34,457 nucleotides of DNA, taken from the IMG/VR virus record IMGVR_UViG_2908572912_000001, positions 1 to 34,457 of that record; one strand, 5' to 3'. Positions within the stretch are counted from its first letter, which is position 1. Every line of letters begins with the position of its first letter. The DNA is from a virus. Lineage: Duplodnaviria > Heunggongvirae > Uroviricota > Caudoviricetes. The position numbers and the translations under genes are program-made. The notes beneath the pieces were generated by a model that saw only the letters and a list, made by a program, of their open reading frames with translations, had not been told where the DNA came from and did no database searches. Shown here one piece after another: positions 1,917 to 33,325 of the stretch.

Positions 1917-2202
1917 GTGAGTCACCTCTGACTGAGAGTTTACTCACTTAGCCGCGTGTCCACTATTGCTGGGTAAGATCAATTTCACCTTTATCCCGCC
2001 CCTTAGACAGAATGTTATAATCTGAACCCACAACAGCGTTTGTACCGGAGCTGGTCCGTTGCAAAATGCTCACCGGGAGAATTCAGATATTCCCTCTATC
2101 ACACTCTGTACATATCACAGCCAAAGGACAGACCAGATTGAAGTGGTAAAACCGATCGTGCACACTACGCAGTCTCACAACTAACAAGAGGTTATTATCC
2201 TG

Positions 2203-2607
2203 ATGGATCAGGTCGTTGTTTTTCAAAAGATGTTTGAGCAAGTGAGAAAAGAGCAAAACTTCTCCTGGTTTTATTCAGAATTAAAACATCACCGTATTGC
2301 ACATTACATTTATTATCTGGCTACGGATAACATCAGAATTATTACTCACGATGATACGGTTTTGTTATTAAGAGGAACCAGGAACCTGTTAAAAGTTAGT
2401 ACGACCAAGAACCCTGCTAAAATAAAAGAGGCCGCATTGCTTCATATTTGCGGAAAATCTACATTTCGGGAATACTGTTCAACACTGGCAGGCGCGGGCG
2501 TTTTCCGGTGGGTTACTGATGTTAATCATAACAAACGCAGTTACTACGCCATTGATAATACGCTTTTATATATTGAAGATGTAGAAAATAATAAACCATT
2601 AATCTAG
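2203..2607 (+). CDS. ycgX: YcgX-like protein (134 aa)
   Basis: 134-aa ORF; assignment from remembered K-12 synteny (ycgX next to iraM) and length. Low certainty on the name. Confidence 0.5.
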   Translation: MDQVVVFQKMFEQVRKEQNFSWFYSELKHHRIAHYIYYLATDNIRIITHDDTVLLLRGTRNLLKVSTTKNPAKIKEAALLHICGKSTFREYCSTLAGAGVFRWVTDVNHNKRSYYAIDNTLLYIEDVENNKPLI

Positions 2608-2809
2608 CTAAAGTTGGATACTTAAGAAATGCTTCATAATTCAGTAAGGCATTAGCATAATGGAAATAAAAGTGCAGAGACTATCTCTATGGATGATTAA
2701 TACTGTCTTTTTATTGTCACCCATAAATAATCACCAGACTAATACTATCAACTTGATATTTGAAATGTGATCACTTGACTTTTGATACGTTATTTTATAA
2801 CGGTTAACA

Positions 2810-2846
2810 TATTTATAAAAACAACGGCCGTGCCACACGTCCGTTT
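2810..2846. terminator. Diverged copy of the icd 3'-flank hairpin/terminator (aaaacaacggccgtgccacacgtccgtttcaatacttaac)
   Basis: About 45 bp alignable with 3681-3725, with compensatory changes in the hairpin stem. Confidence 0.4.
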
Positions 2847-3306
2847 CAATACTTAACGCACATGTATTTTGGTTTAGTCATCATCCGGTTATATGTATTT
2901 TAGCCAGGAACAGGTTAAATCATTCCTATATAACTCAAAAATTGAAACCTTATTCTCATGTCATGCTTATATTCATTATTATCGTTATATAAAAAGGCAA
3001 CCATAATATTTAGCAAATTGGCACAAAGTAGCATAAAGGCTATGTTTTAATTACAGGATGTTCAGTCATTTGAATGTATAACATTATAGCTAAACAAATC
3101 TAAAACGAAGTCAATAATTTATTGCTTTCACAAAATCTCATTTTGTTTAACATCCATTGAGATTCCTTGCTTTAAATTTTATTTTATATAAGCCATCATT
3201 TTAATTAATTTATTTTTTTGAGGGGGGGGTAATATACTCATATGCAAAATCAAGAAATAAACATCCTAATGAACCATATTAAATACCGTGGGATAAGACA
3301 TAACAA

Positions 3307-3630
3307 ATGAAGTGGATAGTAATTGACACGGTAATTCAACCTACATGTGGTATATCTTTTTCAGCCATATGGGGTAATATGAAAATGATCATCTGGTATC
3401 AATCTACTATATTTCTCCCTCCTGGCAGTATATTTACACCGGTTAAGTCTGGTATTATCCTTAAGGATAAAGAATATCCTATTACTATTTATCACATCGC
3501 ACCATTCAACAAGGATTTATGGAGTTTACTCAAAAGCAGTCAAGAGTGTCCTCCAGGAGAAAGCAAAATAACAAATAAATGTTTACATAATAGTTGCATT
3601 ATAAAAATATGCCCATATGGGCTCAAGTAA
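3307..3630 (+). CDS. iraM: IraM-like anti-adaptor protein (107 aa)
   Basis: 107-aa AT-rich ORF adjacent to icdC, as in K-12 (iraM/ycgW next to the icd pseudo-3'-end); sequence recognised from memory. Confidence 0.65.
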
Positions 3631-3732: not shown

Positions 3733-3900
3733 TTACATGTTTTCGATGATCGCTTCACCAAACTCTGAACATTTCAGCAGCTTAGCGCCTTCCATCAGAC
3801 GTTCGAAGTCATAAGTTACGGTCTTGGCATTGATTGCGCCTTCCATACCTTTAACAATCAGGTCAGCCGCTTCAGTCCAACCCATATGGCGCAGCAGTAT
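3733..3900 (-). pseudogene. icdC: Displaced 3' end of icd (isocitrate dehydrogenase), last 55 codons only = icdC-type prophage junction
   Basis: Translation [55 protein letters not shown] equals the Icd C-terminus; similarity stops abruptly at 3900. Confidence 0.9.
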
Positions 3901-4596: not shown

Positions 4597-5718
4597 TTAG
4601 TCATCAACCGCGACTCCTGCACAATCATGGGCTATTGCCAGCAATTGTTTTTTAATTGCTTTAGCATCTACCGTCATATCTACTGTAGCAAAATGGATCT
4701 TATGTCCCTGAGTGACAACATACTCATTAAGCATATAGCCAACAGCTGGATGAAGTAGAAGACCAGCGGCATTGAGCGAAAGCGGATCCGTCTTGTTCTC
4801 CTGTGTTCTAAGGTAGGTATATAGCTGATAAATATAGCCATTACGTAGTGATTGCTCCCGATGCCAACCCTTTGTCAGAATCGAATTAAATTTGGTATCG
4901 ATAATAATACGCCGCTGGGCAGTCTTGTGTTCCAGAATAATGTCTGACTTCATTGTCGGGAAAATCTCTGCACTACCTGCACTTTGATCGCTCAACGCCC
5001 ATTTCAGCTCTTTCCCTGCAGAGACCTGCCAAGTTGTTTTGGCAAGGTGTACACGATATAAGCCAGCGATACCTTTTTCAAATAGTCTTCTCATCCAGTA
5101 AAGGTTATTTGAGGGCGCAGGTAAAAGATATTGGCCTTGATCTTCGGTCGGCATCAGCAGTTCAAAAGCTAATCGTGCGGCATCGACCATCGGTTTATCT
5201 GCGGCATCATGGCGTCCAAAACGCCACACTGAGGGTAATTCGTGGGGGGCAGGATATCCTCCATTTATCCCCTCACGGCGAAGTGATATTGCCATAAAAT
5301 GGCAATCTGCCGCCAAAGACGGTTTCACTATGATTGAGGCCAGACGTTCTAACGCACAGCGAACATAGCGATTTCGGGGGGTGTTGAGGGTTATGTCTTG
5401 AAAATGGCAGGCAACCTGTCCCCGTTCCAGTAGTTGATGACTGGCAGTATACAGTATGTCAATGCGCCCTCTCACCCGGTTCAGGGCCGCATGACAAGTT
5501 TGGTATCCCATATTTAAATTGCGACGTCGGCGCAGCGTAATCTCATGAAGGAGGATTGTCGCCACCAGGTCGGGGATTTCTGCTGGGTTATCTTCTACTG
5601 CGATCTGATTGCGCCCTAACTGACGAAACAGATCTGAAGCGTACAGCATCAGCATCCAGATATTTCGCATGGGAATACGTGATGCTGTATGTTGCTCACT
5701 CCCGGTTATTGTCGTCAT
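4597..5718 (-). CDS. mcrC: McrC-like endonuclease subunit (PD-(D/E)xK) of a McrBC-type modification-dependent restriction system
   Basis: N-terminal IPMRNIWMLMLYA resembles McrC IPVRNIYYMLTYAW; C-terminal IIIDTKF...NGYIYQLYTYL matches the McrC nuclease motif (VDAKY...NLYQLMNYL). 4-bp overlap with upstream mcrB-like gene. Confidence 0.8.
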   Translation of the reverse strand: MTTITGSEQHTASRIPMRNIWMLMLYASDLFRQLGRNQIAVEDNPAEIPDLVATILLHEITLRRRRNLNMGYQTCHAALNRVRGRIDILYTASHQLLERGQVACHFQDITLNTPRNRYVRCALERLASIIVKPSLAADCHFMAISLRREGINGGYPAPHELPSVWRFGRHDAADKPMVDAARLAFELLMPTEDQGQYLLPAPSNNLYWMRRLFEKGIAGLYRVHLAKTTWQVSAGKELKWALSDQSAGSAEIFPTMKSDIILEHKTAQRRIIIDTKFNSILTKGWHREQSLRNGYIYQLYTYLRTQENKTDPLSLNAAGLLLHPAVGYMLNEYVVTQGHKIHFATVDMTVDAKAIKKQLLAIAHDCAGVAVDD

Positions 5719-7697
5719 TTTGCTAATAACACTTTTCTGGCTTCATCGACTTTATTTGGAGCATCGAACCAATATTCGGCGAGCAAAGGGCAGATCTCTG
5801 TATCAACGACTTGTTCATACCAAGCCTGGGCATCGTTGATTTTTTGGCCGATAGCTGGGGTGACATAGCTGTGACCGATACAAAACTGTGGTCCTAAGGT
5901 AACATCTTTTGCCAGCATATCGTTAAGTACCGTCAGTCGAGATTTGATGAATGCTAACATGTCAAAATCAATTGCGTAATTATAATTTACCCAGTTTCTC
6001 CACGCGTCATTAAAAGCTGGCTTTAGATCGATAAACGCGAAACGACGGCGCAGCGCTAGGTCAAGTAGTGCGAGTGAGCGGTCTGCAATATTCATCGTAC
6101 CGATGATATATAGATTCTCAGGAATGTATATTTTTTCATCATCATTTTTAGGATAGGAAAGAGATAATGCCTCAGTCGGCGTGCGTTTATCTGCTTCCAT
6201 CAACGTGAGTGTTTCACCGAAGATTTGCGCCGGATTGCCACGATTAATCTCTTCAATTATCACCACATATTTCGAGGTAGGATTATTGACTGCAGTTTTG
6301 ATTGCATTTACAAAAGGTCCATCAATTAGCGTCAATTGCCCTTCTTTACCTGGACGCCAGCCGCGAATAAAGTCTTCGTAAGAGAGGTTCGGGTGAAATT
6401 GCACCGCGCTAATACGCTCAGGTGCTTTTTCTCCCATCAAGCAGTACGCCAGACGTCGCGCTAACCAGGTTTTTCCAGTTCCGGGTGGTCCTTGTAATAT
6501 CAGGTTTTTCTTGTCGATCAGGCGCTGAAGTGTGAGTTGGATCTTAGCCTCTTCCAAGAAACAGCCATCCTGCACCAGATGACTGATGTCATAAGGAACG
6601 TGAGTGAGTTTTGGCAACGGCGCACTCTCTTCGACAGTTTCCTCAGTTATCGTCTGGGATTCGTTTTTCTCAAAATTCAGGTATTCATAATTTCCGGACT
6701 CAAGGGACTTTAACTCATCATCATTGCATAGTTTCTGTAGATAAAAGTAGATTGAGCTTGTAACTGTTTTGCTCTCAGGATGCTCTACCTTGAATACGTC
6801 CAAGTAGTTTTCTTCCAACTCCGAAGCAGTGAAATAAGGGCCATTTTTTTTCAGGCATAACGCCTTAATTTTATTCAGTAAAGAGGCTTTCCACGTTCTA
6901 TTTGCCACCTCATCTTTAGACTGGCTAAGATCTGTATTCCACGCTGATAAAGAAAGTTCTGGGAAAGAATGAACCGGATAGTTTGGTTGGGTAAAGACCT
7001 CGTTCAGCGCCCGCATAAGACTCAGGTAACTTTGTCCACTACAGCGACCTTTTGCCCCGTTTTTAATGATCTTAATGTTTAACACTGTCTGAATGTAATA
7101 CTGCGACTGGCTATCTAAAGTAGGGTAGAACCAAGGACGGGTCCAGTACAACCCCATGGTGAGATTCCAACCGACATTCATTACTGTAGAAGCGATGTCA
7201 TATGCGGCAGTGAAGTCTGCAGAGTTAGTATTCTGGTTATCCGCAAAGGTCATTGCCTGCGAGAACATTTCCCACAAGCATTCAATGTCATTAGGGTCGC
7301 GTGACTTTTCATAACCAAAGAACCAAGATTTTTGGTTATTCAACAGCGGGATTCCGGCAAAGGAGTCAGGAATCGGTTCGTTCACGCCCAACAAATTCGC
7401 TAGCTTGGCAGCAATAATTTTGCGATTGCTGTCGGTCAAGTTACGATTGAACAAGCCCATAGTAGTAAACGGACAAATGTCTTTTAAGGGAAAGATCTCT
7501 CCCATAATAGATTTGTCCTGCAGATGGGACATTCCTTCCACACCTGAGGCAATTAGATGAATACCTTTGACTAATTCATCTCTACGATTTCGCCAAGTCA
7601 GTAACGCGTTGGCAAAAGCCTCATAAAAACTAGCCCAAGCAAATTTGCCATCATGTTCTGCTGTATCCACGGGAACTCCATTATACTTGTTGAGCAA
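5715..7697 (-). CDS. mcrB: McrB-like AAA+ GTPase (C-terminal 270 aa) with a long, unrecognised N-terminal domain of about 390 aa
   Basis: C-terminal LILQGPPGTGKTWLARRLAYCL, VVIIEEINRGN, YIIGTMNIADRSLALLDLALRRRF align with EcoK McrB GTPase motifs; N-terminal region has no similarity I recognise. Confidence 0.8.
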   Translation of the reverse strand: MLNKYNGVPVDTAEHDGKFAWASFYEAFANALLTWRNRRDELVKGIHLIASGVEGMSHLQDKSIMGEIFPLKDICPFTTMGLFNRNLTDSNRKIIAAKLANLLGVNEPIPDSFAGIPLLNNQKSWFFGYEKSRDPNDIECLWEMFSQAMTFADNQNTNSADFTAAYDIASTVMNVGWNLTMGLYWTRPWFYPTLDSQSQYYIQTVLNIKIIKNGAKGRCSGQSYLSLMRALNEVFTQPNYPVHSFPELSLSAWNTDLSQSKDEVANRTWKASLLNKIKALCLKKNGPYFTASELEENYLDVFKVEHPESKTVTSSIYFYLQKLCNDDELKSLESGNYEYLNFEKNESQTITEETVEESAPLPKLTHVPYDISHLVQDGCFLEEAKIQLTLQRLIDKKNLILQGPPGTGKTWLARRLAYCLMGEKAPERISAVQFHPNLSYEDFIRGWRPGKEGQLTLIDGPFVNAIKTAVNNPTSKYVVIIEEINRGNPAQIFGETLTLMEADKRTPTEALSLSYPKNDDEKIYIPENLYIIGTMNIADRSLALLDLALRRRFAFIDLKPAFNDAWRNWVNYNYAIDFDMLAFIKSRLTVLNDMLAKDVTLGPQFCIGHSYVTPAIGQKINDAQAWYEQVVDTEICPLLAEYWFDAPNKVDEARKVLLAK

Positions 7698-10130: not shown

Positions 10131-10463
10131 CTATCGCTTCGAAGGTGGAGGCCAGACGGGGTTTACTGTATCAACACGGTTCAGCAATACCCGATATGTT
10201 TTCCATGCGGCCAGAAACGCTTTCTCTTCCTCCGTTGCGATCTCCAGCTCAGCAACAGTCTGAACGTACCAGGAACAGCCTCCTTCAGGGCTTGAAGGAT
10301 ATTTCACGTTAATCCCGTTAAGATCATCGCTGCCGGGAACGTTCGTCGAGGCATGAAGATACCCCGCGCTCAGCGTGGACTGATGTTCAGACGCCCATGC
10401 AGGCGCACCGGATACGACCAGACAGATGGCTGCGGACAAAATGGCTGCACAAACTTTACGCAT
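10131..10463 (-). pseudogene. lom: lom outer-membrane protein gene, frameshifted after about 55 codons
   Basis: [55 protein letters not shown] matches lambda Lom N-terminus, then diverges into an unrelated frame. Confidence 0.7.
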
Positions 10464-10486
10464 AATTACCTCTCGCTTTTCTGCAA

Positions 10487-10518
10487 TAAAAAAGGCGTCA
10501 TTCCTGACGCCCTTTATT
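10487..10518. terminator. Bidirectional hairpin terminator between J and lom (ggcgtca ttcc tgacgcc flanked by A-run and T-run)
   Basis: Perfect 7-bp stem with A/T runs on both sides. Confidence 0.5.
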
Positions 10519-10533
10519 GGGGTTATAACAATT

Positions 10534-13310
10534 TCAACGAATACTGATGCCGGAAGCAGCCTTTTTGGTCACAATCACCGTACAGTCGGTGATATTGCCT
10601 GCCCCCTGATTGCCTTTCTGGAAAATCTTAAACTCCAGAGTGACGCTTCCCCTGCCACTCGGCATATCAATAACCGCACTGTAACTACCGGGAATGGCCC
10701 CTTTAGTTTCTCTGGATGCGATTAATACGCCGTTTTTGCGAACTTCAAAACCATACCCCGTGTACCTTGTACCTCCCGGGTTATCACCACTTCCCGGATC
10801 GTCATACGCTATACCGTTAAAGATAATGGGCGGAATAATGATTTGACGGTCAAAGTTATGATCATCGCTGATGGTGACTGTAACCGTCCCGTCTGGTGTT
10901 TCCGTGTTACCCCACGTACCAGCCTTTTTCGGGAATGATTTGGATACTGTTTTAACAAAATCACCTCTGACCTGATTCGCCTCCAGCATACCCTTAATCG
11001 TACAGTTTTCATTTATCGTGACGTTGTTGAGCGTCCCGGCGTTCGCATTCACACTGCCACTGATATCCGCATTTTTAGCGGTCAGCTTTCCGTCCGGTGT
11101 CAGGGAAAATACCGGTGGATTTCCACCACTGGTAATGGTGGGGGCCGTCAGGCGTTTGAGGAACACGTCGTTCATGAATATCTGGTTGCCCTGCGCCACA
11201 AACATCGGCGTTTCATTCCCGTTTGCCGGGTCAATAAACGCGATACGATTGGCGGCAACCAGAAACTGGCTCAGTTTGCCTTCCTCTGTATCCTCCATGC
11301 TGAGGCCAAGCCCCGCGACATAATGCTTACCGTCTTCGGTCTGCTCAATTTTGACGCCCCACATGGCATTCCATTTATCGTTGGCGTCCTTCCACTCTTT
11401 CGAAAACTCCTCCAGTCTGCTGGCGTTATCCTCCGTCAGCTCGACTTTTTCCAGCAGCTCCTTGCCGAGATGGGATTCGGTTATCTTGCCTTTGAAAAAA
11501 TCCAGGTAACCTTCCGCATCATCGCTCGCCCGACCAACGGCTTCCACGAATGCCGATTTGCCAACGGTGTTCACACTGCGGATATAAAAGTAATAATCAT
11601 GGCCCGGTTTGATATTGATACTGGCGGCTATCCAGTACAGCGCCGTACCAAGATAGCGGGCTGTGGTTTCAACCTGCCTGATATCGGTAATCCGCTTTTC
11701 CGAGAACCAGAACTCAAACTGTACCGTCGGGTCATAAACGGCAAGATGCGGCGTGGCGGTTATCTGAAAATAGCCCGGCGTCAGCTCAATCCTCGACGGT
11801 GTTGCCGGTGCGGCAATCCGGAACGATACCGACGCCGGATCGCCCTGCTGTCCCCACGCATTTACCGCCCGGACTGTCAGCGTGTACCGCCCCAGCGCCA
11901 GTTGCGTGAAGCGGTATGTGGTTTCCGTCGTCCGGGCCGTGCTGACCAGCCGCTCACTGCCGTCATCCGCTGCCACGGTCAGGCGAAGCATAAAGCTCAC
12001 CCCCTTCACCACCTTCGGCGTGTCCCAGCGCGCCAGCACCTGATATTCCCCGCTGTCTGCGGTGACTTCGGCAGTCAGGTGCTGCACCGCTGGCGGCGTG
12101 ACACCATTCACCGTGCCGCTCTGGTCGCCGTCAAAGTGCGCCCCGTTATCCACGATGGCCTCTTTTTCCGGTACATGCTGCACGGCGGTGATGGCATACG
12201 TGCCGTCATCGTTCTCACGGATACTCACGCAGCGGAACAGACGCTGGCGCAGCGTCGGCAGCTTCAGCCCCCATACGCTGTATCCGGCAACGCCGTCAGG
12301 AACACGGCTCACTTTTACCTTCACGCCGTCGGTGACGGACTGGACCTCCACGCTGACCGGATTGCCACTTCCGTCAACCAGGCTTATCAGCGTGGTACCG
12401 GAGGATGGCAGCGTGATTTCACGGTCAAGCGTCAGCGTCCGGGTCTGGCTGTTCACCGCCAGCACGCGCCCGCCGATGCTGATCCCCGCATAGTCATCAT
12501 CGCAGATTTCAATAACATCACCCGGCACATGGCGAAGCCCTTCGGCACCCACGCTGAAATCCACGGTCTGCGTCTCCAGCAGCTCCGTTTTAATCAGCCA
12601 CAGCCCGGCGCGGTGTGCCTGCCCCCGGCTGGTACAGCCAAAGGCATCCATCTTCGTGACGTTACGACCGTAACGGGCAATGGCCTGCGTGTCCTCCACA
12701 AGCTCTGTCGCCGTCTCCCAGCCGTTATCCGGGTCAATCCAGTTCACCTCAACGGCATTATGGCGGTCCTTCAGGGCGCTGAAGCTGTAGCGGAACGGCG
12801 CGCCATCATCCGGCATCACCACATTACTGCGGTTATAGGTCCACACCTTATCTGATGGTCGGTCCTGCACGAACGTCAGCGTCTGCCCGTTCCATACCGG
12901 CATACAGCGCATCGCCGAGCAGAAATCACTGAGCACATCCCACGCCTTGCGCTGTGTGGTCAGGTACGCATTACAGGTGATGCGCGGCTCCGTGCCGCCA
13001 AAGCCGTCCGGCACTGACTGGTCGCAGTACTGGCCGATGACATACAGCGCCCATTTATCCACATCCGCCGCACCAAGACGTTTCCCCATGCCGTAGCGCG
13101 GATGGGTCAGCATATCCCACAGACACCAGGCCATGTTGTTGCTGTACGCTGGCCTGAACGTTCCGTCCCAGATACCGCTGTATTGCCGCGTCTGCGGGTT
13201 ATAATTCGACGGCACCTGCAGAATACGCCCGCGCAGATGATAATTACGGCTCACCTGCTGGCTGCCGAACTGCTCCGAGTCCACCTGCACGCCGACCAGT
13301 GCCGTGTTCG
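10534..13310 (-). pseudogene. J: Tail tip/host-specificity protein J, C-terminal ~918 codons only (N-terminal ~200 codons deleted)
   Basis: Translation matches lambda J from ...[19 protein letters not shown] to the C-terminal receptor-binding region; no ATG start, upstream sequence is nu1 in another frame. Confidence 0.9.
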
Positions 13311-13819
13311 GGTATCAGTTCATCCAGCGCGGCTGCTTTGTTCATGGCTTTGATGATATCCCGTTTCAGGAAATCAACATGTCGGTTTTCCAGTTCCGGA
13401 AAACGCCGCTGCACCGACAGGGGGATCCCGTCGAGAATACTGGCAATTTCACCTGCGATCCGCGACAGCACGAAAGTACAGAATGCGGTTTCCACCACTT
13501 CAGCTGAGTCTCTGGCATTCTTCAGTTCCTGTGCGTCGGCCTGCGCACGCGTAAGTCGATGGCGTTCGTACTCAATAGTCCCTGGCTGGAGATCTGCCTC
13601 GCTGGCCTGGCGCAGTTCTTCAACCTCCCGGCGCAGCTTTTCGTTCTCAATTTCAGCATCCCTTTCGGCATACCATTTTATAACGGCGGCAGAGTCATAA
13701 AGCACCTCATTACCCTTGCCACCGCCTCGCAGAACGGGCATTCCCTGTTCCTGCCAGTTCTGAATGGTACGGATACTCGCACCGAAAATGTCAGCCAGCT
13801 GCTTTTTGTTGACTTCCAT
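13311..13819 (-). pseudogene. nu1: Terminase small subunit Nu1, 3'-truncated (about 169 of 181 codons), fused out of frame to J
   Basis: MEVNKKQLADIFGASIRTIQNWQEQGMPVLRGGG... matches lambda Nu1 to ...ALDELIP, then reads into J-derived sequence and stops at 13244. Confidence 0.9.
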
Positions 13820-20459: not shown

Positions 20460-21074
20460 CTAACGTTGTTTAATAACATTCTGACGCAAATGTGGCAATA
20501 CTCGACTCCACTTATCATCCTGCCACGGCTGGAATTTTACATGTGCCGTTTCTCTGGCGAGGATTGCTCGCGCTCTGGTGAGTATCTGGGGATATTCTTG
20601 CTCGATGGAAGTGAAGCGACCAGCTTCACGATGCTCCGCAACCTGAAGAAGAGGAGTAACGTTCTGGCAGGCGGTTAACATCGCATCCCCAGCTCGCCAT
20701 AACCAAGCAAGTGTGCAAAGTTCGTTATCAGTGAATTGTTTTGTGATCGGGGATTGTTGAACTTCTCGATCGAGAATATCCAGAACCCAGCGGCGGAACT
20801 CTTTGGCTACAGGAGTTCGTGCAAACATGGCGATCAAATGGGCTCCGCGAAGGCTAAATACTCGAGACTCCTGCATTCCACGAGGGGTGGTCACTTTGAC
20901 CACCCTTGTCATCATATCTGTAAATTCATCTGAGTGACGGGAGTAAATGCGCTGAACTGCTTTATCGTCCGCATATTCCAGAGCTAAACCAACTTCAGTG
21001 GCAGTAAGCCAAATTCTGTTATTGTGGCAAATTGGGGTAAACGTCGTTTTGTGGAATGCTAATTGAGTAGTCAT
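20460..21074 (-). CDS. Bro-N domain DNA-binding protein (Roi/antirepressor-like)
   Basis: N-terminal ...ICHNNRIWLTATEVGLALEYADDKAVQRIYSRHSDEF... fits the Bro-N fold pattern; sits in the nin region like HK022 roi. Confidence 0.65.
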   Translation of the reverse strand: MTTQLAFHKTTFTPICHNNRIWLTATEVGLALEYADDKAVQRIYSRHSDEFTDMMTRVVKVTTPRGMQESRVFSLRGAHLIAMFARTPVAKEFRRWVLDILDREVQQSPITKQFTDNELCTLAWLWRAGDAMLTACQNVTPLLQVAEHREAGRFTSIEQEYPQILTRARAILARETAHVKFQPWQDDKWSRVLPHLRQNVIKQR

Positions 21075-21228
21075 AGTTTCACCTCATCAGGTTAACCATC
21101 ACCACCAACGACGCCAATCGACTGGTGGTGAACTGTGCAAGGTTGGCGTAACCGGCTACTCAAATCCGGCGCTCCCGAAGAAGCCCTCACACAGCCCACC
21201 ATAATTTGGGCGTAGCCGTGCTTAGCGC

Positions 21229-21252
21229 ATAAAAAAACCGCTTAACGCGGTA
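21229..21252 (-). terminator. Rho-independent terminator on the minus strand after the NACHT cassette (accgc gttaa gcggt + T7)
   Basis: 5-bp GC stem with a 7-nt T-run on the minus strand. Confidence 0.4.
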
Positions 21253-21469
21253 TGCGTTGAGTAGTATTCCGGGACGCCAATCCCGTGTGCCGATTTTGCG
21301 GCAACGCACAGAATATATCCCCAGATAAATCATGTCGTCAACCCCAGTAAATGGACACCATGATGATCACAGCCATAGCTGCTACAACAGTTACAACTAC
21401 CTCAGGCCAAAACATAACGATTTCCATATCACCTTTAGCCGCCAGACGAATAGAGACTCCCAATTCTGG

Positions 21470-21685: not shown

Positions 21686-23581
21686 TTAATTATTTTTCTT
21701 TAACTTGAAATTTCTTCCCATTGCTAGTGTTCTTCGAAGATTCGAATCATAAGCTGGTTGATAATATCTATCATAAAAATCCTTAATTGTCTGATGGTAA
21801 GTATCCAGCATCAAACCATAAAACCCCATGACCTTAAGATAATCCACCAAGGGAAATAAATAATCATCAGTCTGAACATCAGTATCAATATTATTTTTTT
21901 GTTTTTTAACTTCAAATTTGTATAAGTTTAACTCACCCTTATCCATCGTGCATGAAAAAAGGTCGTCAAAAATCAAATCAATTTTTGTCATAGGAACTCG
22001 TTCTTTTCCAGACATTATAGGTAGAATATCAATACCTAAGAGCGAACCTAATACAAAGTCGTAATGAAGCGAAATCACTGAGTCATTCGATGTCGAGTTG
22101 CCTTTGATAAATACTCTACTTAGTGCCGAGTCAAAAACATTCTCAACTCTCTCTCTCGTCATGTTTGCGACATCTACAACCCCCATATCACGAGAAGCTT
22201 TTATTGTGATTTCATCTATAAATGCTTTGGAATCTAGTGAATGTAAAAACAACATGAAGTTATCTAACTGTTCAGAGCATTTAATAGCCACCATAAGATT
22301 TTCGTATATATCTTTTTTATACTCAATCGGTAAATTTGCTACCGCAAAAGCAGCATAAAATTCTTGCACTGATTTATGCAGAAAAACATACCTATTATTT
22401 CCCTCAGGTTGGATAAGGCAAGTTATCTCAATAAGATCATCTATAAAGTTTGATGCATCTTCTTTAAGATAACCTTCTGTTTCAATAGCATCTTCAGCAT
22501 ATCTAAGCAACTCCTCTCCCCAAAACTCAAATTTCTCCTCAATCAGTGCGTTATAGCAAATAGCTGAAAAACACAATTTAGCTTTTTCACCAATAATGTT
22601 TGATTTTTTCTCGCGCGTATATACTTTTATTTTATCATGCCTTGCATATAAGGTGTCAAAGAGGCTTCGATAAAACTCTATTATATTATTTGGAATATCA
22701 TTCATATAAGGATAACAATAATACAAAAGAGTAACTAAAATTGGATTGCAAATAGTTCCCTCAAGTTCTTCTTTATCACATAGTAAATCCGCCAAGACTT
22801 TAAACGAGGCATCACTACTTGAGAATCTGTCATTTTTCGATAAAGAATGAAGAATACAAATCTTATCAGAAATATTTAGCTTATCTATAAAAATATTATA
22901 CACATCAGTAGTATAACATATATCTGTATTTGGTCTCGTTGTTGCGATAATTGGTGTGTTAAAATGATAATGAATGTTTTTTATTTCATTCATCATCATA
23001 GTTCGCTCTTCATGTTTAACCTCATCAAATCCATCCAACATTAAAACGACTCTTTGGGATTGCAGTAATATTTTCAAGCTATCCTCTGAACACCCCACAC
23101 CAAATGAATTAAGAATGTCTGCCAGATAAGCAATAATATTTGCATTCTTCACCCTTCTTAATTCAATAAAAAAAGGCATCCGTTCTGATTTTTTTATTTC
23201 CTCGCTAAACAACTTGCGTAAAATAGTACTTTTCCCTTGCCCCGCTATACCGACTATATTTACAATACCATGAAATGGTAAAGTGACCCCATCTTTTATA
23301 ACGACCTTGTCTTTATTAGATGCCACCTCAACAGTTAACGGATAATAAATATCATCTAAAAAAATATCATAATCAGCGTTGTGCAAAGTTCTCATTTTCA
23401 GAGATGGTAGCACATGCTTTCTTAAATAATTTTCTCTTCCGAGGGGATCATTTAATTGTTCGAGTATAACCTTGCCTTCATCTAGGTCCCTAGCCCAAGG
23501 TTTAGAGAGCAATACTTCTGTTATTTTTTCCGCAGCTTTTCCTACTGTGCTATTAATAATAGTCGCAAGAAACTCATCCAT
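21686..23581 (-). CDS. NACHT-family STAND NTPase (bacterial NLR-like), candidate antiphage protein; ~110-aa N-terminal region, central NACHT, ~350-aa C-terminal region
   Basis: Walker A GIAGQGKST, NACHT-type Walker B VVLMLDGFDEV, sensor-1-like IIATTRP; GC ~30 percent island. Start placed at ATG (MDEFL...) preceded by GGTGA; track alt-start gives 23638. Confidence 0.8.
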   Translation of the reverse strand: MDEFLATIINSTVGKAAEKITEVLLSKPWARDLDEGKVILEQLNDPLGRENYLRKHVLPSLKMRTLHNADYDIFLDDIYYPLTVEVASNKDKVVIKDGVTLPFHGIVNIVGIAGQGKSTILRKLFSEEIKKSERMPFFIELRRVKNANIIAYLADILNSFGVGCSEDSLKILLQSQRVVLMLDGFDEVKHEERTMMMNEIKNIHYHFNTPIIATTRPNTDICYTTDVYNIFIDKLNISDKICILHSLSKNDRFSSSDASFKVLADLLCDKEELEGTICNPILVTLLYYCYPYMNDIPNNIIEFYRSLFDTLYARHDKIKVYTREKKSNIIGEKAKLCFSAICYNALIEEKFEFWGEELLRYAEDAIETEGYLKEDASNFIDDLIEITCLIQPEGNNRYVFLHKSVQEFYAAFAVANLPIEYKKDIYENLMVAIKCSEQLDNFMLFLHSLDSKAFIDEITIKASRDMGVVDVANMTRERVENVFDSALSRVFIKGNSTSNDSVISLHYDFVLGSLLGIDILPIMSGKERVPMTKIDLIFDDLFSCTMDKGELNLYKFEVKKQKNNIDTDVQTDDYLFPLVDYLKVMGFYGLMLDTYHQTIKDFYDRYYQPAYDSNLRRTLAMGRNFKLKKNN

Positions 23582-23968: not shown

Positions 23969-24148
23969 TTAAAAATAACATACCGTTCGCCAGACCTTAC
24001 CATCAATGACCAGGATTCCTGCCCGCGCCATTTTTGCCGCAGCCTGATTTATGCTGGTTAATGTCACACCTGTTGTCGCAGCAACGTCCGGCGCACAGAA
24101 GCTCTTGTGCGTCCCCAGGTAATGAATAATTGCTTCTTTTCCCGTCAT
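23969..24148 (-). pseudogene. ren: ren, 3'-truncated (about 55 Ren-like codons then 4 foreign codons and stop)
   Basis: MTGKEAIIHYLGTHKSFCAPDVAATTGVTLTSINQAAAKMARAGILVIDGKVWRTV matches the lambda Ren N-terminus; ATGA overlap with P stop; homology ends where the AT-rich island begins. Confidence 0.7.
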
Positions 24149-24786
24149 ACACTGGCTCCTTTCAGTCCGAACTTAGCTTTGATTTCTGCAATCTTCGCCA
24201 GAGCCTGTGCACGATTTAGAGGTCTACCGCCCATGACAGGAAGTTGTTTTACTGGTTCAGGTATAGCCTCACCACGGTTAATTCTCGCAGTCATATGGGC
24301 AAGTTCATCGGCAGCCTTGCGCCGTAATTCCGAGTCAGTCAACGCATTAGCCCGCATGTTCTGATACAGGTTGGTAACCAGCCAGTAGTGCGCGTTTGAT
24401 TTCCACGGATAAGACTCTGCGTCCGGATACAGGCCACGCTTCCGGCAATACTCGTAAACCATATCAACCAGCTCGCTGGCGTTTGGCAGTCCGGCGGTAA
24501 CGGATGCTTCTTCCCGGCACCAGGCGACAAACTGCCCGGGTGATGGCAGGAATGGTCGATTCTGCCGACGGGCTACGCGCATTCCTGCGTTAACCTGTTC
24601 CATTGTGGTGATCCCGTTTTCCCGGAAAGCCAGAACCCACTGGCGGCGGATTTCGTTCAGTTCGTTCTGATCCCGGTTAGCCAGGCTCGCAGGGAAAGTT
24701 GCCAGTAACTGTCTGAACACACCGTTGATGATCTGCGCTACCTGCTGTATCTGCTGGTTTAATCTTTCCACCAGTGGCTGAGACAA
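24145..24786 (-). pseudogene. P: Replication protein P with intact C-terminal ~205 residues but disrupted 5' end; no O gene present
   Basis: ...QQVAQIINGVFRQLLATFPASLANRDQNELNEIRRQWVLAFRENGITTMEQ...AKIAEIKAKFGLKGASV matches lambda P; the P-type ATGAAAA start lies 52 nt upstream in a different frame, continuous with the upstream HTH ORF. Confidence 0.8.
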
Positions 24787-24925
24787 TTTTCATTACATAG
24801 CGGGCATCAATTCCGCCACCGTGTAGCCAACGCCAAACTGTGGGTTGGGCTACACCGCATAGATCTGCCAGTCGTTTTTGACTACCTGTAATACTGATTG
24901 CGAGTTGAATGGTTTGATTTGTCAT
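24677..24925 (-). CDS. Cro-like HTH protein; the native C-terminus is uncertain because the frame runs through the P start region
   Basis: MTNQTIQLAISITGSQKRLADLCGVAQPTVWRWLHGG has a Cro/CI-type HTH; divergent from cI across an operator region. Confidence 0.5.
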   Translation of the reverse strand: MTNQTIQLAISITGSQKRLADLCGVAQPTVWRWLHGGGIDARYVMKIVSATGGKIKPADTAGSADHQRCVQTVTGNFPCEPG

Positions 24926-25035
24926 TATCAATTCCTATTGGTATTGCAATGAATAAATAATAGCAATGCGTATTAATCCAAGCAATAGCAAAACGTGTTT
25001 TGACCATCAATACGCAAGCGTATAAATTAAAACTT
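24926..25035. promoter_or_regulatory. Immunity-region divergent promoters and operators: pR candidate on minus strand (-35 TTGCTT 24980-24985, 17-bp spacer, -10 TATTAT 24957-24962); pRM candidate on plus strand (-35 TTGACC 24999-25004, -10 TATAAA 25021-25026) giving near-leaderless cI
   Basis: Consensus-like sigma70 hexamers with 16-17 bp spacing; spacers contain TAGCAAT/GCAATAGCAA and TACGCAAGCGTA motifs. Confidence 0.55.
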
Positions 25036-25728
25036 ATGAAAAAAGAAACTCTTGCTGATCGCTTAAACCTAGCGATGGAACAATCTGGAATGTCTCAAGG
25101 CGCTCTTGCAAAGGCGTCTGGCGTAGCTCAACCCACAATCTGGAGACTGACAAGCGGCAATGCGCGCGGCTCAACAAAAATTGTTGAAATAGCTAATGCA
25201 TTGGGTGTTCGAACAGAATGGCTCTCTTCAGGCATAGGCCCGATGAGAAATGACGGTCAACAATCAGGGAAGCCTGCTGTCAGCCATTCCAAATACTTCA
25301 AAATTGACGTTCTTGATATAGAAGTCAGTGCCGGGCCGGGTGTAATCAACCGTGAGTTTGTAGAAGTTCTACGCTCGGTTGAATACTCGTTTGACGATGC
25401 TCGTCACATGTTCGATGGCAGGAAGGCGGAAAATATCCGCATCATTAACGTGCGTGGTGACAGCATGTCAGGAACGATCGAACCAGGTGATCTGCTGTTC
25501 GTTGATATCACGGTTAAATCTTTCGACGGTGATGGTATCTATGCGTTTCTGTATGACGACACCGCCCATGTAAAACGCCTGCAAATGATGAAGGATAAGC
25601 TGCTGGTTATCTCTGATAACAAGAGCTACTCACCGTGGGACCCGATCGAGAAAGACGAGATGAACCGCGTGTTCATCTTCGGGAAAGTCATCGGGAGCAT
25701 GCCGCAGACATATAGAAAGCATGGGTAG
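25036..25728 (+). CDS. cI: CI-type prophage repressor (N-terminal HTH, C-terminal LexA/S24 autopeptidase-like domain)
   Basis: HTH MSQGALAKASGVAQPTIWRL; C-terminal VRGDSMSGTIEPGDLLFVD and HVKRL (Ser/Lys dyad pattern). Track alt-start at 25000. Confidence 0.85.
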   Translation: MKKETLADRLNLAMEQSGMSQGALAKASGVAQPTIWRLTSGNARGSTKIVEIANALGVRTEWLSSGIGPMRNDGQQSGKPAVSHSKYFKIDVLDIEVSAGPGVINREFVEVLRSVEYSFDDARHMFDGRKAENIRIINVRGDSMSGTIEPGDLLFVDITVKSFDGDGIYAFLYDDTAHVKRLQMMKDKLLVISDNKSYSPWDPIEKDEMNRVFIFGKVIGSMPQTYRKHG

Positions 25729-25857
25729 AAATCAGAACAAAATTATGCACTTCGCTTTTCAGCTTACTGTAGTAAGGCAATAAATTAGGCTTGACGTTAG
25801 CTATCAGGTGCACAACAATAATTGTTGAATAATAGGTTTTTTTAACTAGGTGATAAC

Positions 25858-26997
25858 ATGGCAGCGGTTGAATTTCAATTGTCTAGGAAGATGATTGATT
25901 GGATAGCAAATTCTCAAGGAGTTTCTATCGAAACTCTTGCTGACCAAGTCATGCCCAAAAAGATTAATAAATTTCTTAACGGAGTGGTAAGTAAATCCGC
26001 AGCAGAAAAACTGGCAAAAATTGGAGGAATCCCTTTCGGTTTTTTATTTCTTGAAACGCCACCAACTCCAGCCAAACCCAAGATCCCTGACTTAAGGCAA
26101 GCTATAAATAGCCGTGAGTTAGGAAAAGATTTTTTTGATGTTTACTATGATATAGAATATAAACTTGAGTGGTACAAAGACTATTTAAGAGAAAATGGTA
26201 ATGATGATCCACTCGATTTTATTGGTAAATTTAAATTTAATAGAAAATTAAATTATAAGGTTGTTGCTACAGACATAGCAAACACAATACATTTTGATAT
26301 ACAAAAAGAGATAAAAAATGTCACTTTTGAGAGCTATTTTTCTAAAGTGGCAAAACTAATAGAAGACACTGGCGTATTAGTTTTCAAGAATGGTGTTGTG
26401 GGTAATAATAATAAAAGAAAACTTGACACGCGAGAGTTTCGTGGTTTCTGTATATCTGATAGCGTTGCTCCGATCATTTTTGTAAATAGCTCGGACGCGT
26501 TATCTGCGCAGGTATTTACATTATTTCATGAGGTGGCTCATCTTTGGCTTGGAGTCGATGGAGTCTCTGGGTGGGACACAGAAAAAAACATAGAATCTTT
26601 TTGTAATAAAGTTGCTGCTGAAATCTTAATGCCTGATAATCTCTTCAAATCTTTCTGGCTTAATGCATCCAGCGATAATAATTATTATCGAGTAAAAGAG
26701 GTTTCTAAGTTATTTAAGGTTAGTGATTTCGCTTGTGCAATCAAAGCGTTACAATTAGATTTGATAGAAAGAAACACTTTGGAGATAATTAAAGATCAAG
26801 CTTACAATAAGCCCAAAAAAGAATCCAATGGTGGTTCTTTCTTTAACACATTACCTGTTCGTAACAGTCCAAAACTTACGAATATAATAATTTCCAAAGC
26901 AATGTCTCAACAATTACCATTAAGGGAAGCAGGCGTACTGCTAAATGTAAAAGCAGATACAGTTGTTGAATTTTATAAAAAACGAGAATCTCTATGA
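25858..26997 (+). CDS. HTH domain fused to ImmA/IrrE-family HExxH metallopeptidase (COG2856-like)
   Basis: HEVAHLWLG zinc-binding motif at about residue 215; N-terminal HTH-like segment; GC ~33 percent; located where rexA-rexB sit in lambda. Confidence 0.75.
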   Translation: MAAVEFQLSRKMIDWIANSQGVSIETLADQVMPKKINKFLNGVVSKSAAEKLAKIGGIPFGFLFLETPPTPAKPKIPDLRQAINSRELGKDFFDVYYDIEYKLEWYKDYLRENGNDDPLDFIGKFKFNRKLNYKVVATDIANTIHFDIQKEIKNVTFESYFSKVAKLIEDTGVLVFKNGVVGNNNKRKLDTREFRGFCISDSVAPIIFVNSSDALSAQVFTLFHEVAHLWLGVDGVSGWDTEKNIESFCNKVAAEILMPDNLFKSFWLNASSDNNYYRVKEVSKLFKVSDFACAIKALQLDLIERNTLEIIKDQAYNKPKKESNGGSFFNTLPVRNSPKLTNIIISKAMSQQLPLREAGVLLNVKADTVVEFYKKRESL

Positions 26998-27506
26998 TTC
27001 ATAATGGAAAATTCTTAATTGATAGTAATGTCTTCATAGAGGCAAAAAACTTTGCATATAACTTCAATTATTGCAAAATATTTTGGGATTTTCTTCTCGC
27101 TTTACACATTAATGGTCTGATTTATAGCATTAATGCTGTAAAAAAATAACTATGTGCAAAAGATGATCCATTGTGTAAATGGATTAAAGAAGAGTTACCA
27201 TCATCATTCTTCGAAGATGAGCATAGTTCAATAGAAAATTATGCAAAGTTAATAAATTGGTCAACTAAATTAGATGTTACCGAAAAGGCAAAGTTTGATT
27301 TTGCAAGCCATGAAAAAGCAGATGCTTTTTTAATAGCCCATGCGATGACACATGGATATACTATTATTACCCATGAGAAACCATCCGGTGGCAAACCTAA
27401 AAAAAGAATAATGATCCCGGATGCTGCTGCTTCTCACGGCGTTAAGACATTAACACTATATGAATTTCTTCCAAGATACGCTAGTCATAATTTTTCTTTG
27501 AAATAA
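26994..27506 (+). pseudogene. DUF4411-like PIN-like nuclease gene, translationally coupled (ATGA) to the ImmA gene, interrupted by an in-frame TAA at 27147-27149
   Basis: Codons 1-51 MIHNGKFLIDSNVFIEAKNF... (PIN-like Asp in LIDSN) then TAA, then the same frame continues 118 codons to 27506 (...ADAFLIAHAMTHGYTIITHEKP...). Frame verified codon by codon. Confidence 0.65.
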
Positions 27507-27511
27507 AACGT

Positions 27512-27538
27512 CCCGGCCACCGTGCCGGGTTTTCTTTT
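27512..27538 (+). terminator. Rho-independent terminator closing the cI/rex-position operon (cccggc caccgt gccggg + ttttctttt)
   Basis: Perfect 6-bp GC stem and T-run. Confidence 0.7.
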
Positions 27539-27639
27539 GCCTCCCCTCATCACACACACCGTTCAAAAAACCACCACAACCCCGCTTCAGTTATCGCTAT
27601 GCGATGCAAGTCACAAAATTAATTCTTTTTGCTATCAAA

Positions 27640-27710
27640 TATTTAATATCAAAACACATCTAGCAATAGCAATAAGTATTGATATCATCAATAGCAATAG
27701 CTATTATCAC
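27640..27710 (+). promoter_or_regulatory. pL-like promoter with operator repeats: -35 TTGATA (27679-27684), 17-bp spacer tcatcaatagcaatagc, -10 TATTAT (27702-27707); flanking CTAGCAATAGCAATAAG and CAATAGCAATAGCTATT repeats
   Basis: Near-consensus hexamers with 17-bp spacing; same GCAATAGC motif as at oR. Confidence 0.55.
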
Positions 27711-27780
27711 CATGTCGCAACAACACAACGATACGGCAATCACCTGATTCACCGTTGCGATGACCGCTTAGATCCGCAGC

Positions 27781-28191
27781 TTGAATTTCAGCAGGCTCCG
27801 GGGAGTGCGAGGGGTGAAGCGGACGCGTGAACGTCGGTGTGACCAGCTGAAATCAACTCAACACTTCATACCTCAGTCGCTTCAACGAGGCGGCTTAGTT
27901 ATGACAACCGGCGGCCATCCACCGCCTGAATACGCGCAGAAGTCTTTATATGTTCAGCAGCCCAGCTTACGGGCAGGAGTTTTTATGGTTCATCAACATT
28001 ACGGAACGCAGACCGTTAATCGCGGTGCGGTCATGCCAGGAATGCTGGTCAAACACAAAGATGGTACCTGGACTGCATCAGCTAATTTACGCGGACGGCT
28101 TTATCTGCATCGCGGCATCGAGCGCACTTATACCCGTGATTTGCTCGTAGAAGTTTTTCTCGACGGACGCGGTAACGGCCTGAATCACTAA
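27781..28191 (+). CDS. Hypothetical early-left protein; N-terminal Arg-rich stretch (RLRGVRGVKRTRERR) if the TTG start is used; alternative ATG at 27901
   Basis: First ORF after the pL-like promoter, the place of N in lambda; no similarity to lambda N beyond an Arg-rich motif. Confidence 0.35.
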   Translation: MNFSRLRGVRGVKRTRERRCDQLKSTQHFIPQSLQRGGLVMTTGGHPPPEYAQKSLYVQQPSLRAGVFMVHQHYGTQTVNRGAVMPGMLVKHKDGTWTASANLRGRLYLHRGIERTYTRDLLVEVFLDGRGNGLNH

Positions 28192-28267
28192 CCCCTCTTT
28201 CCTGTTTTCCTAATCAGCCTGGCATTTCGCGGGCGATATTTTCACAGCCATTTTCAGGAGTTCAGCC

Positions 28268-28564
28268 ATGAACGCTTATTACATTCAGGATCGTCTTGAG
28301 GCTCAGAGCTGGGCACGTCACTACCAGCAGATCGCCCGTGAAGAGAAAGAGGCAGAACTGGCAGACAACATGGAAAAAGGTCTTCCACAGCACCTGTTTG
28401 AATCACTCTGTATCGATCATTTGCAACGCTGCGGGGCCAGCAAAAAAGCCATTACCCGTGCGTTTGATGACGATGTTGAGTTTCAGGAGCGCATGGCAGA
28501 ACACATCCGGTACATGGTTGAAACCATTGCTCACCACCAGTTTGATATTGATTCAGAGGTATAA
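28268..28564 (+). CDS. gam: Gam (RecBCD inhibitor), short GamS form
   Basis: [54 protein letters not shown]... matches lambda Gam; the long-form N-terminal extension is in a different frame here. Confidence 0.9.
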
Positions 28565-33088: not shown

Positions 33089-33325
33089 ATGTCTCGACTA
33101 ATCACTTTACAGGACTGGGCTAAAGAAGAATTTGGGGACTTAGCACCAAGTGAGCGAGTTCTGAAAAAATACGCGCAAGGGAAAATGATGGCCCCACCCG
33201 CTATAAAAGTTGGTCGCTACTGGATGATTGACCGAAATTCCCGTTTTGTAGGAACGCTTGCAGAACCGCAACTCCCAATAAACGCAAACCCAAAACTCCA
33301 ACGGATAATCGCTGATGGCTGCTAG
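33089..33325 (+). CDS. xis: Excisionase-like protein (Xis) overlapping the integrase start
   Basis: 78-aa ORF immediately upstream of and overlapping int; name from position. Confidence 0.65.
   Translation: MSRLITLQDWAKEEFGDLAPSERVLKKYAQGKMMAPPAIKVGRYWMIDRNSRFVGTLAEPQLPINANPKLQRIIADGC

Follow-up and report, generated by a model that had tools for sequence, protein, structure and literature searches.

A putative HTH-IrrE peptidase antitoxin and DUF4411 PIN toxin cassette next to cI in a decayed Escherichia coli prophage, with a nonsense codon in the toxin gene

The cassette and its closest described relatives

Genes for PIN-like proteins of the DUF4411 family have been described together with genes for zinc peptidases of the ImmA/IrrE type. 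Matelska et al. (2017, PMC5499597) reported DUF4411.1 genes downstream of genes for a fused helix-turn-helix (HTH) and DUF955 (ImmA, COG2856) protein and predicted a three-component toxin-antitoxin system, in a purely bioinformatic study that is silent on a prophage slot and on the nonsense allele treated here. A homologous pair, VapBC52 of Mycobacterium tuberculosis, is known from the structures of the complex (PDB 9VZY) and of the toxin (9VZZ; Singh et al., Nucleic Acids Research 2026, PMC13273310). VapC52 is a PIN tRNase. In a 1:2 complex (VapB52:VapC52) it is bound by two parts of VapB52, an HTH-like domain at the N-terminus and a C-terminal domain by which the active site is occluded. The IrrE-type peptidase of VapB52 is activated by single-stranded DNA and thereupon severs the N-terminal domain of VapB52 itself, cutting at a conserved FR motif; the pair gives phage resistance in M. 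smegmatis (PMC13273310). Here we analyse a two-gene cassette resembling VapBC52 in a stretch of viral DNA of 34,457 nucleotides (IMG/VR record IMGVR_UViG_2908572912_000001; the whole stretch is called the window below), which corresponds with zero mismatches to positions 133399-167855 of the chromosome of Escherichia coli AR_0369 (NZ_CP027140.1) and holds a heavily decayed lambdoid/Rac-like prophage inserted at icd.

The cassette lies directly downstream of a cI-like repressor gene (25036-25728, plus strand) and in the same orientation. Its gene 1 (25858-26997, plus strand) is intact and encodes an ImmA/IrrE (M78) zinc peptidase of 379 residues; gene 2 (26994-27506, plus strand) is a DUF4411 PIN-like reading frame interrupted by the codon TAA at 27147-27149. 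The TGA of gene 1 and the ATG of gene 2 overlap as ATGA (26994-26997), and the guanine-plus-cytosine (GC) content of the cassette is 29-38%, versus 47-53% in the flanks. We are fairly confident that the cassette is a toxin-antitoxin or abortive-infection cargo module, composed of an HTH-IrrE-peptidase antitoxin and a DUF4411 PIN toxin, and that it is dead in AR_0369. An earlier note, made from the letters alone, had described an AT-rich gene pair co-oriented with cI, a first protein with an HTH and a HEVAHLWLG zinc-peptidase motif, and a second gene that starts at the ATGA overlap, meets TAA at codon 52 and then stays open for 118 codons; all of these positions hold, and its proposal of a toxin/antitoxin- or abortive-infection-type module now finds backing in the match of both proteins to the chains of VapBC52.

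Gene 1 matches the Pfam family Peptidase_M78/IrrE (PF06114, E-value 1.2e-13), with HEVAHLWLG at residues 224-232, and PHROG 2439 over its full length (E-value 3e-76); against NCBIfam it gives only a sub-threshold match to 'spr1629 repressor/antitoxin' (24.6 bits versus a cutoff of 335). Its AlphaFold2 model (mean predicted local distance difference test, pLDDT, 88.8) consists of a five-helix HTH-like N-terminal domain (residues 1-64), a linker modelled as lower-confidence coil (65-89), an IrrE/M78 zinc peptidase core and a four-helix C-terminal domain (328-378), and its top structural matches are CapP (7t5t) and IrrE. The residues H224, E225, H228 and E246 are invariant in 38 sequences, and in the linker motif P77-D78-L79-R80 both D78 and R80 are invariant, whereas L, F or M occurs at position 79. 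The gene 1 profile matches 9vzy_A, the 393-residue 'HTH cro/C1-type' chain of the VapBC52 complex, over positions 10-333 (E-value 4.8e-22); in this match the zinc-site residues align with H216, H220 and E245 of VapB52, and the P77-D78-L79-R80 motif aligns with its RDFRR.

The protein of gene 2 starts MIHNGKFLIDSNVFIEAKN and, when translated across the stop, matches Pfam DUF4411 (PF14367) over residues 7-161 (E-value 1.7e-36), the hidden Markov model check that the earlier note had called for; it has no match in NCBIfam. Its profile matches the 'DUF4411 family protein' chain 9vzy_D (E-value 5.5e-14), and the best structural matches of its AlphaFold2 model (pLDDT 88) are VapC PIN toxins. All 31 homologues aligned (33-85% identity) share four acidic residues, D10, E52, D110 and E128, which line up with the acidic active-site residues of VapC52. 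The gene pair and its order are kept down to 33% identity, with abutting or overlapping genes in varied contexts.

The locus thus shares with VapBC52 a large antitoxin gene (379 residues here, 393 in the 9VZY chain) upstream of a DUF4411 PIN toxin gene, an HEXXH plus Glu zinc site, a linker motif (FR in VapB52, D-L/F-R here), the four acidic PIN residues and a three-domain antitoxin architecture, the last of which is predicted here. It differs in that the relation is distant and detectable by profiles only, being based on sequence profiles and not on direct structure superposition; the cysteine-switch residue is Ser in gene 1, and the C-terminal domain is unalignable by sequence. Moreover, VapBC52 is a mycobacterial chromosomal locus, in contrast to the enterobacterial prophage cargo described here, and the toxin gene of AR_0369 is a pseudogene.

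Two other known systems are close to the cassette in the design of gene 1. ImmA-type antitoxins occur in RosmerTA (Millman et al. 2022, bioRxiv 10.1101/2022.05.11.491447; Ernits et al. 2023, PMC10440598), and the ImmA node has PIN-like partners (Ernits et al. 2023, PMC10440598). RosmerTA is likewise a toxin-antitoxin phage-defence system, in which an HTH and ImmA/IrrE zinc-peptidase fusion antitoxin of about 380 residues is combined with a swappable toxin, but its validated RmrT toxins include membrane-depolarising proteins and not DUF4411. In CapH/CapP of the cyclic-oligonucleotide-based antiphage signalling system (CBASS; Lau et al. 2022; PDB 7T5T), the IrrE-type protease CapP is switched on by DNA damage or single-stranded DNA, and CapP is the best match of the gene 1 peptidase domain both structurally and in PADLOC (capP, E-value 1e-14). 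There, however, a separate protease cleaves a separate HTH repressor and thereby turns the operon on, whereas HTH and protease are fused in gene 1; the cassette has neither a separate CapH nor a CBASS operon, and the homologue of gene 1 binds its effector directly.

Proposed mechanism and its alternatives

By analogy with VapBC52, the gene 1 protein of intact copies would bind the DUF4411 dimer and block its active site. Single-stranded DNA arising from phage replication or DNA damage would activate the zinc peptidase, which would cleave itself at the conserved D-(L/F)-R motif of the linker and so lose the toxin-binding N-terminal domain, and the freed PIN nuclease would then cut tRNAs and bring the growth of the infected cell to a stop. 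In AR_0369, the private change from G to T at 27147, by which the codon of the invariant Glu52 has become TAA, would leave only a stub of 51 residues.

Several observations weigh against this picture. Toxicity, neutralisation, tRNA cleavage and the sensing of single-stranded DNA would be carried over to the E. coli proteins from a homologue that is related at the level of profiles. The cysteine of the VapB52 switch, C229, which ligates zinc when the enzyme is inactive, aligns with S237 of gene 1, a position at which at least 90% of the clade have Ser, and activation in the gene 1 clade may therefore differ. The match to VapB52 reaches no further than profile position 333 of 377, so that the two C-terminal domains can be equated by the predicted four-helix shape only. 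In PADLOC, gene 1 matches 12 RmrA models weakly (E-values 6e-8 to 8e-4, 17-30 bits), some of them over nearly the full length (for example gene 1 residues 20-314 versus model positions 23-304 of 383), and gene 2 matches no PADLOC model and thus no RmrT family.

A simple picture of an essential antitoxin is hardest to reconcile with two related enterotoxigenic E. coli strains, ATCC 43886 and E2528-C1. In both, a copy of the insertion sequence IS1 follows nucleotide 545 of gene 1, at about codon 182 and upstream of HEXXH (in ATCC 43886 at 2219-2916 of the extracted locus, L005), while the DUF4411 gene is intact. A broken gene 1 beside an intact toxin gene is unexpected for an indispensable antitoxin; such a state could be tolerated if a polar effect of IS1 keeps gene 2 silent, or if the toxin is still bound by the N-terminal fragment.

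These strains are also consistent with a transcriptional switch of the CapH/CapP or IrrE/DdrO type, in which gene 1 is not a stoichiometric, protein-binding antitoxin but mainly an autorepressor whose self-cleavage raises transcription of the DUF4411 gene. The upstream region of the cassette has to be considered in this context. A consensus scan gave a candidate promoter (TTGACG, 17-nucleotide spacer, AACAAT; 25791-25819, plus strand), of which the -35 hexamer, the spacing and CACAACAAT are kept upstream of the homologous cassettes of Enterobacter, Klebsiella and Serratia, whereas the flanks have diverged. Direct reading and a repeat scan revealed a perfect 7-1-7 palindrome, CAACAAT-A-ATTGTTG, over the -10 hexamer (25813-25827). 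Other genera share the -10 hexamer and the left arm of the palindrome but not the right arm, and for this reason an operator role for the HTH domain of gene 1 stays hypothetical. A 20-mer inside the cI coding sequence (25169-25188, GCTCAACAAAAATTGTTGAA) is 90% identical to the palindromic sequence at 25810-25829 and could be a second binding site or a product of chance.

The switch is thus favoured by the overlap of palindrome and -10 hexamer, by CapP as the best match of gene 1 and by the tolerated IS1 insertions. It is opposed by the lack of conservation of the right arm, by the overlapping ATGA start, a typical arrangement where toxin and antitoxin are produced in a fixed ratio, and by the homologous VapB52, which neutralises VapC52 and is bound to it directly in the 1:2 complex of the crystal (PMC13273310; PDB 9VZY). 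We regard the switch as an unlikely replacement for a toxin-binding antitoxin; the autorepressor and toxin-binding models are, on the other hand, not mutually exclusive.

The remaining expression signals belong to the cassette as well. Gene 1 is preceded by the Shine-Dalgarno sequence AGGTGAT (25848-25854, plus strand; direct reading), which is conserved in E. coli, Enterobacter, Klebsiella and Serratia and as AGGTG(A/C) throughout a six-sequence alignment. Gene 2 is followed by a strong intrinsic terminator, found by a terminator scan, with a 6-bp all-GC stem and then TTTTCTTTT (27512-27540, plus strand; it scores on the minus strand too). With a conserved promoter and a terminator of its own, as predicted from the sequence, the cassette is self-contained.

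Another alternative concerns the enterobacterial prophage clade as a whole, whose trigger or regulation might be unlike that of M. tuberculosis VapBC52, and the gene 1 protein left intact after the loss of the toxin, which might be kept for a function of its own; we rate this as rather improbable. The idea of an altered trigger may draw on the Ser in place of the switch cysteine, on the neighbouring SOS-cleavable cI and on the expression of the slot in lysogens. Concerning the second part, the gene 1 product of AR_0369 (WP_000741702.1) is the same protein as in intact strains, and in AR_0369 this antitoxin/sensor gene survives undamaged as an orphan beside a toxin gene that is dead. Such an orphan protein could act as a regulator that senses single-stranded DNA, or could neutralise homologous DUF4411 toxins that enter the cell and so be an 'anti-addiction' factor.

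The nonsense codon of gene 2

The TAA at 27147-27149 (plus strand) divides gene 2 into a 5' fragment of codons 1-51 plus the premature stop (26994-27149, plus strand) and an untranslated 3' remainder of 118 codons plus stop (27150-27506, plus strand), which encodes D110 and E128 and ends at the TAA at 27504-27506. An open run of 118 codons has an estimated probability of about 5e-5 at this base composition; given this value and a Pfam match that spans both sides of the stop, the continued frame is not due to chance. In the NCBI annotation (PGAP) of AR_0369, gene 2 is likewise entered among the pseudogenes, as DUF4411 with the remark "internal stop".

The comparison with other carriers shows what the codon was before. 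The cassette is present in 33 of 5426 complete E. coli genomes. In strain CV839-06, which has the same prophage at the same site, a single difference to the window was found in 1901 bp, namely G instead of T at 27147, and IAI1 also carries G at this position. A 116-bp probe with T at 27147 is 100% identical to AR_0369 alone, whereas the same probe with G is at least 99% identical to all 33 carrier genomes, from which it follows that 32 of the 33 carry GAA. In the sequences compared, TAA is accordingly a derived change private to AR_0369, from the ancestral GAA (Glu52). Since Glu52 is invariant and aligned with the active site of VapC52, the mutated codon is that of an invariant catalytic glutamate. 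The 51-residue product keeps just Asp10 out of the four acidic active-site residues, and because only this stub can be produced, the effector is dead in AR_0369. The supposition of the earlier note that a single change, probably from GAA to TAA, had silenced the nuclease is therefore confirmed by the G in the other carriers, and the intact DUF4411 homologues, which are single open reading frames of about 170 residues and not two separate ones, identify the stop as a mutation.

It could be argued that the stop is not a true loss of function, being instead a sequencing or assembly error, a site of read-through or the boundary between two cooperating fragments. The occurrence of TAA at 27147 in one genome only, its position after a run of seven A and the open reading frame of 111 residues that gene callers place from a TTG at 27171 would fit these possibilities. 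An independently assembled Logan contig from run SRR6799402 is, however, identical to the window over 3562 bp (24720-28281), including the T at 27147 and a deletion junction specific to AR_0369; the T is thus backed by reads and no assembly artefact. SRR6799402 may come from the same isolate as AR_0369, in which case it supports the base call and gives no evidence of a second lineage. The change is, furthermore, a substitution and not an error in homopolymer length. TAA is an efficient terminator in E. coli, which counts against read-through. As for cooperating fragments, the stop takes away the invariant Glu52 itself and interrupts the PIN core, and the full-length homologues are all single open reading frames. 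By direct reading, the first in-frame ATG of the 3' part comes no earlier than residue 116 of the full protein, and the sole start codon ahead of it, the TTG at 27171, lacks a Shine-Dalgarno sequence; a C-terminal part that acts as an independent gene, a possibility raised by the earlier note against its own reading, was rejected on these grounds. That the stop is anything other than a true loss of function is accordingly most improbable.

Among the close homologues, the DUF4411 entries P0038 and P0039 of Enterobacter kobei are fragmentary, the entry P0031 is truncated, and some entries are fused to unrelated sequence. The E. kobei entries and P0031 hint at repeated disruption of the toxin gene.

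The cargo slot and the source prophage

The right edge of the slot that the cassette occupies is formed by an oL/pL-like region (27605-27713, plus strand), recognised by repeat and promoter scans. Its operator repeats (AATAGCAAT...) match those of the oR region (24926-25012), and it includes a promoter-like sequence, TTGATA-17-TATTAT, at 27679-27707. Given these oR-like repeats, the slot is bounded by cI and oL/pL and is equivalent in position to rexAB of phage lambda, as the earlier note had assumed from its place downstream of cI. Lambda rexAB also lies between cI and oL/pL, is co-oriented with cI and has a presumed role in exclusion or abortive infection expressed in lysogens. It has no relation to the cassette in sequence or fold and a different mechanism (RexB is a membrane protein): no homology to RexA or RexB was found, and Pfam, PHROG and NCBIfam assign the cassette proteins to other families.

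The content of the slot varies between strains. Its right flank (27503-27600) is common to about 1128 E. coli genomes, 33 of which carry the cassette. An identical cI (WP_001295669.1) with cro occurs with unrelated cargo, either a DUF6932 gene and a gene for a hypothetical protein of 310 residues or a small open reading frame and a DUF6414 gene; strains of this kind are NGF1 and 13TMH22. NADC1036, with a different S24 repressor, has DUF6414 cargo in the same slot. In three extracted loci the counterparts of the slot (25729-27540 in the window) lie at 2090-3492 (L019), 2415-3501 (L020) and 2479-3478 (L021). The DUF6932 and DUF6414 cargo are candidate defence pairs.

Conversely, the homologous cassette is often found just downstream of a prophage repressor, without S24 domain in Klebsiella and Enterobacter and with S24 domain in Providencia, but it also occurs without a nearby repressor, in a primase island of Serratia, beside Arc/pRha genes and beside an integrase gene. 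A search of deposited phage genomes with the cassette DNA found nothing, and a search of deposited phages with the cassette proteins found a match in one of 50,697 records, at 27% identity; because these searches came out nearly empty, the cassette appears to be essentially limited to prophages and genomic islands. In the literature we found no essentiality or defence test of this exact gene pair in E. coli.

These distributions bear on the second idea of the earlier note, namely that the ImmA-type protease acts on the adjacent repressor. An anti-repressor role of gene 1 towards cI, as known for ImmA towards ImmR in ICEBs1 and with DUF4411 as an accessory, could appeal to the position of gene 1 directly downstream of a prophage repressor in the same orientation and to the repressors without S24 domain beside the cassettes of Klebsiella and Enterobacter, but it is very unlikely, indeed close to negligible, because the cI of the window has a complete S24 self-cleavage domain of its own, the identical cI occurs with unrelated cargo (the cassette being present in only 33 of the approximately 1128 genomes with the right flank), the cassette is also found autonomously, with no repressor nearby, and the characterised homologue VapB52 cleaves itself (PMC13273310). 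The cI of the window matches Pfam HTH_3 (E-value 1.8e-6) and Peptidase_S24 (E-value 1.3e-18), and direct reading shows the Ala-Gly site SAGPG, the catalytic Ser motif GDSM and the Lys in VKRL.

The prophage that carries the cassette is itself badly damaged. In the window its integrase gene starts at 33315, with an icd fragment at 3733-3900, and the AR_0369 prophage has two IS3-family elements. Annotated remnants at 10131-13819 comprise a tail-fibre assembly fragment, a Lom fragment and partial J. This J gene lacks its N-terminus and abuts and overlaps the gene of the terminase small subunit; all head genes and most tail genes are thus missing in comparison to CV839-06, which retains the genes for capsid, portal, terminase, O and P. 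A second deletion reaches from the vicinity of cro into the middle of P (junction near 24749, in the region 24145-24925) and has removed YdaT, O and the N-terminus of P, all of which are still present in CV839-06 and IAI1; it is specific to AR_0369. With O and the N-terminus of P lost, the AR_0369 prophage is unable to replicate, and it can no longer make particles. The nonsense mutation in gene 2 is routine decay within an already crippled prophage.

Further cargo is present elsewhere in the window. An AT-rich gene (about 35% GC; 21686-23581, minus strand) between the truncated ren and the nin region encodes a NACHT-domain protein of 631-650 residues; it has no match among the PADLOC models, and CV839-06 has other genes at its position. 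It may be a candidate for antiphage cargo of the bacterial NLR (nucleotide-binding leucine-rich repeat) type. Rfam gave a C4 antisense RNA (72 bits) beside the Hfq-binding RNA isrK (61 bits) at 21121-21303 (minus strand), just upstream of a gene for an antirepressor-like protein with a P22AR C-terminal domain (20460-21074); together they look like a secondary immunity module of the P1/P7 C4-ant style within a lambdoid prophage. The other end of the element has genes for McrC and an McrB-like AAA-ATPase (4597-7670, minus strand), which lie between the remnants of the prophage and the icd fragment and adjoin a degraded recombinase gene and an acyltransferase gene; the McrC/McrB-like pair is further defence cargo.

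Several elements of this account are already known: the pseudogene annotation by PGAP, the pairing of the two genes (2017, PMC5499597) and the structure and function of the homologue (2026, PMC13273310). The practical value of the finding is modest. It provides a comparison set, with AR_0369 as toxin-null, ATCC 43886 and E2528-C1 with IS1 in the antitoxin gene and about 30 intact E. coli, which could be used to probe the mechanism of VapBC52 in a prophage-borne enterobacterial version without the cysteine switch. In addition, this prophage family has a hotspot of cargo exchange between cI and pL, which is worth mining for defence genes, since the same cI is seen with at least three unrelated cargo sets.

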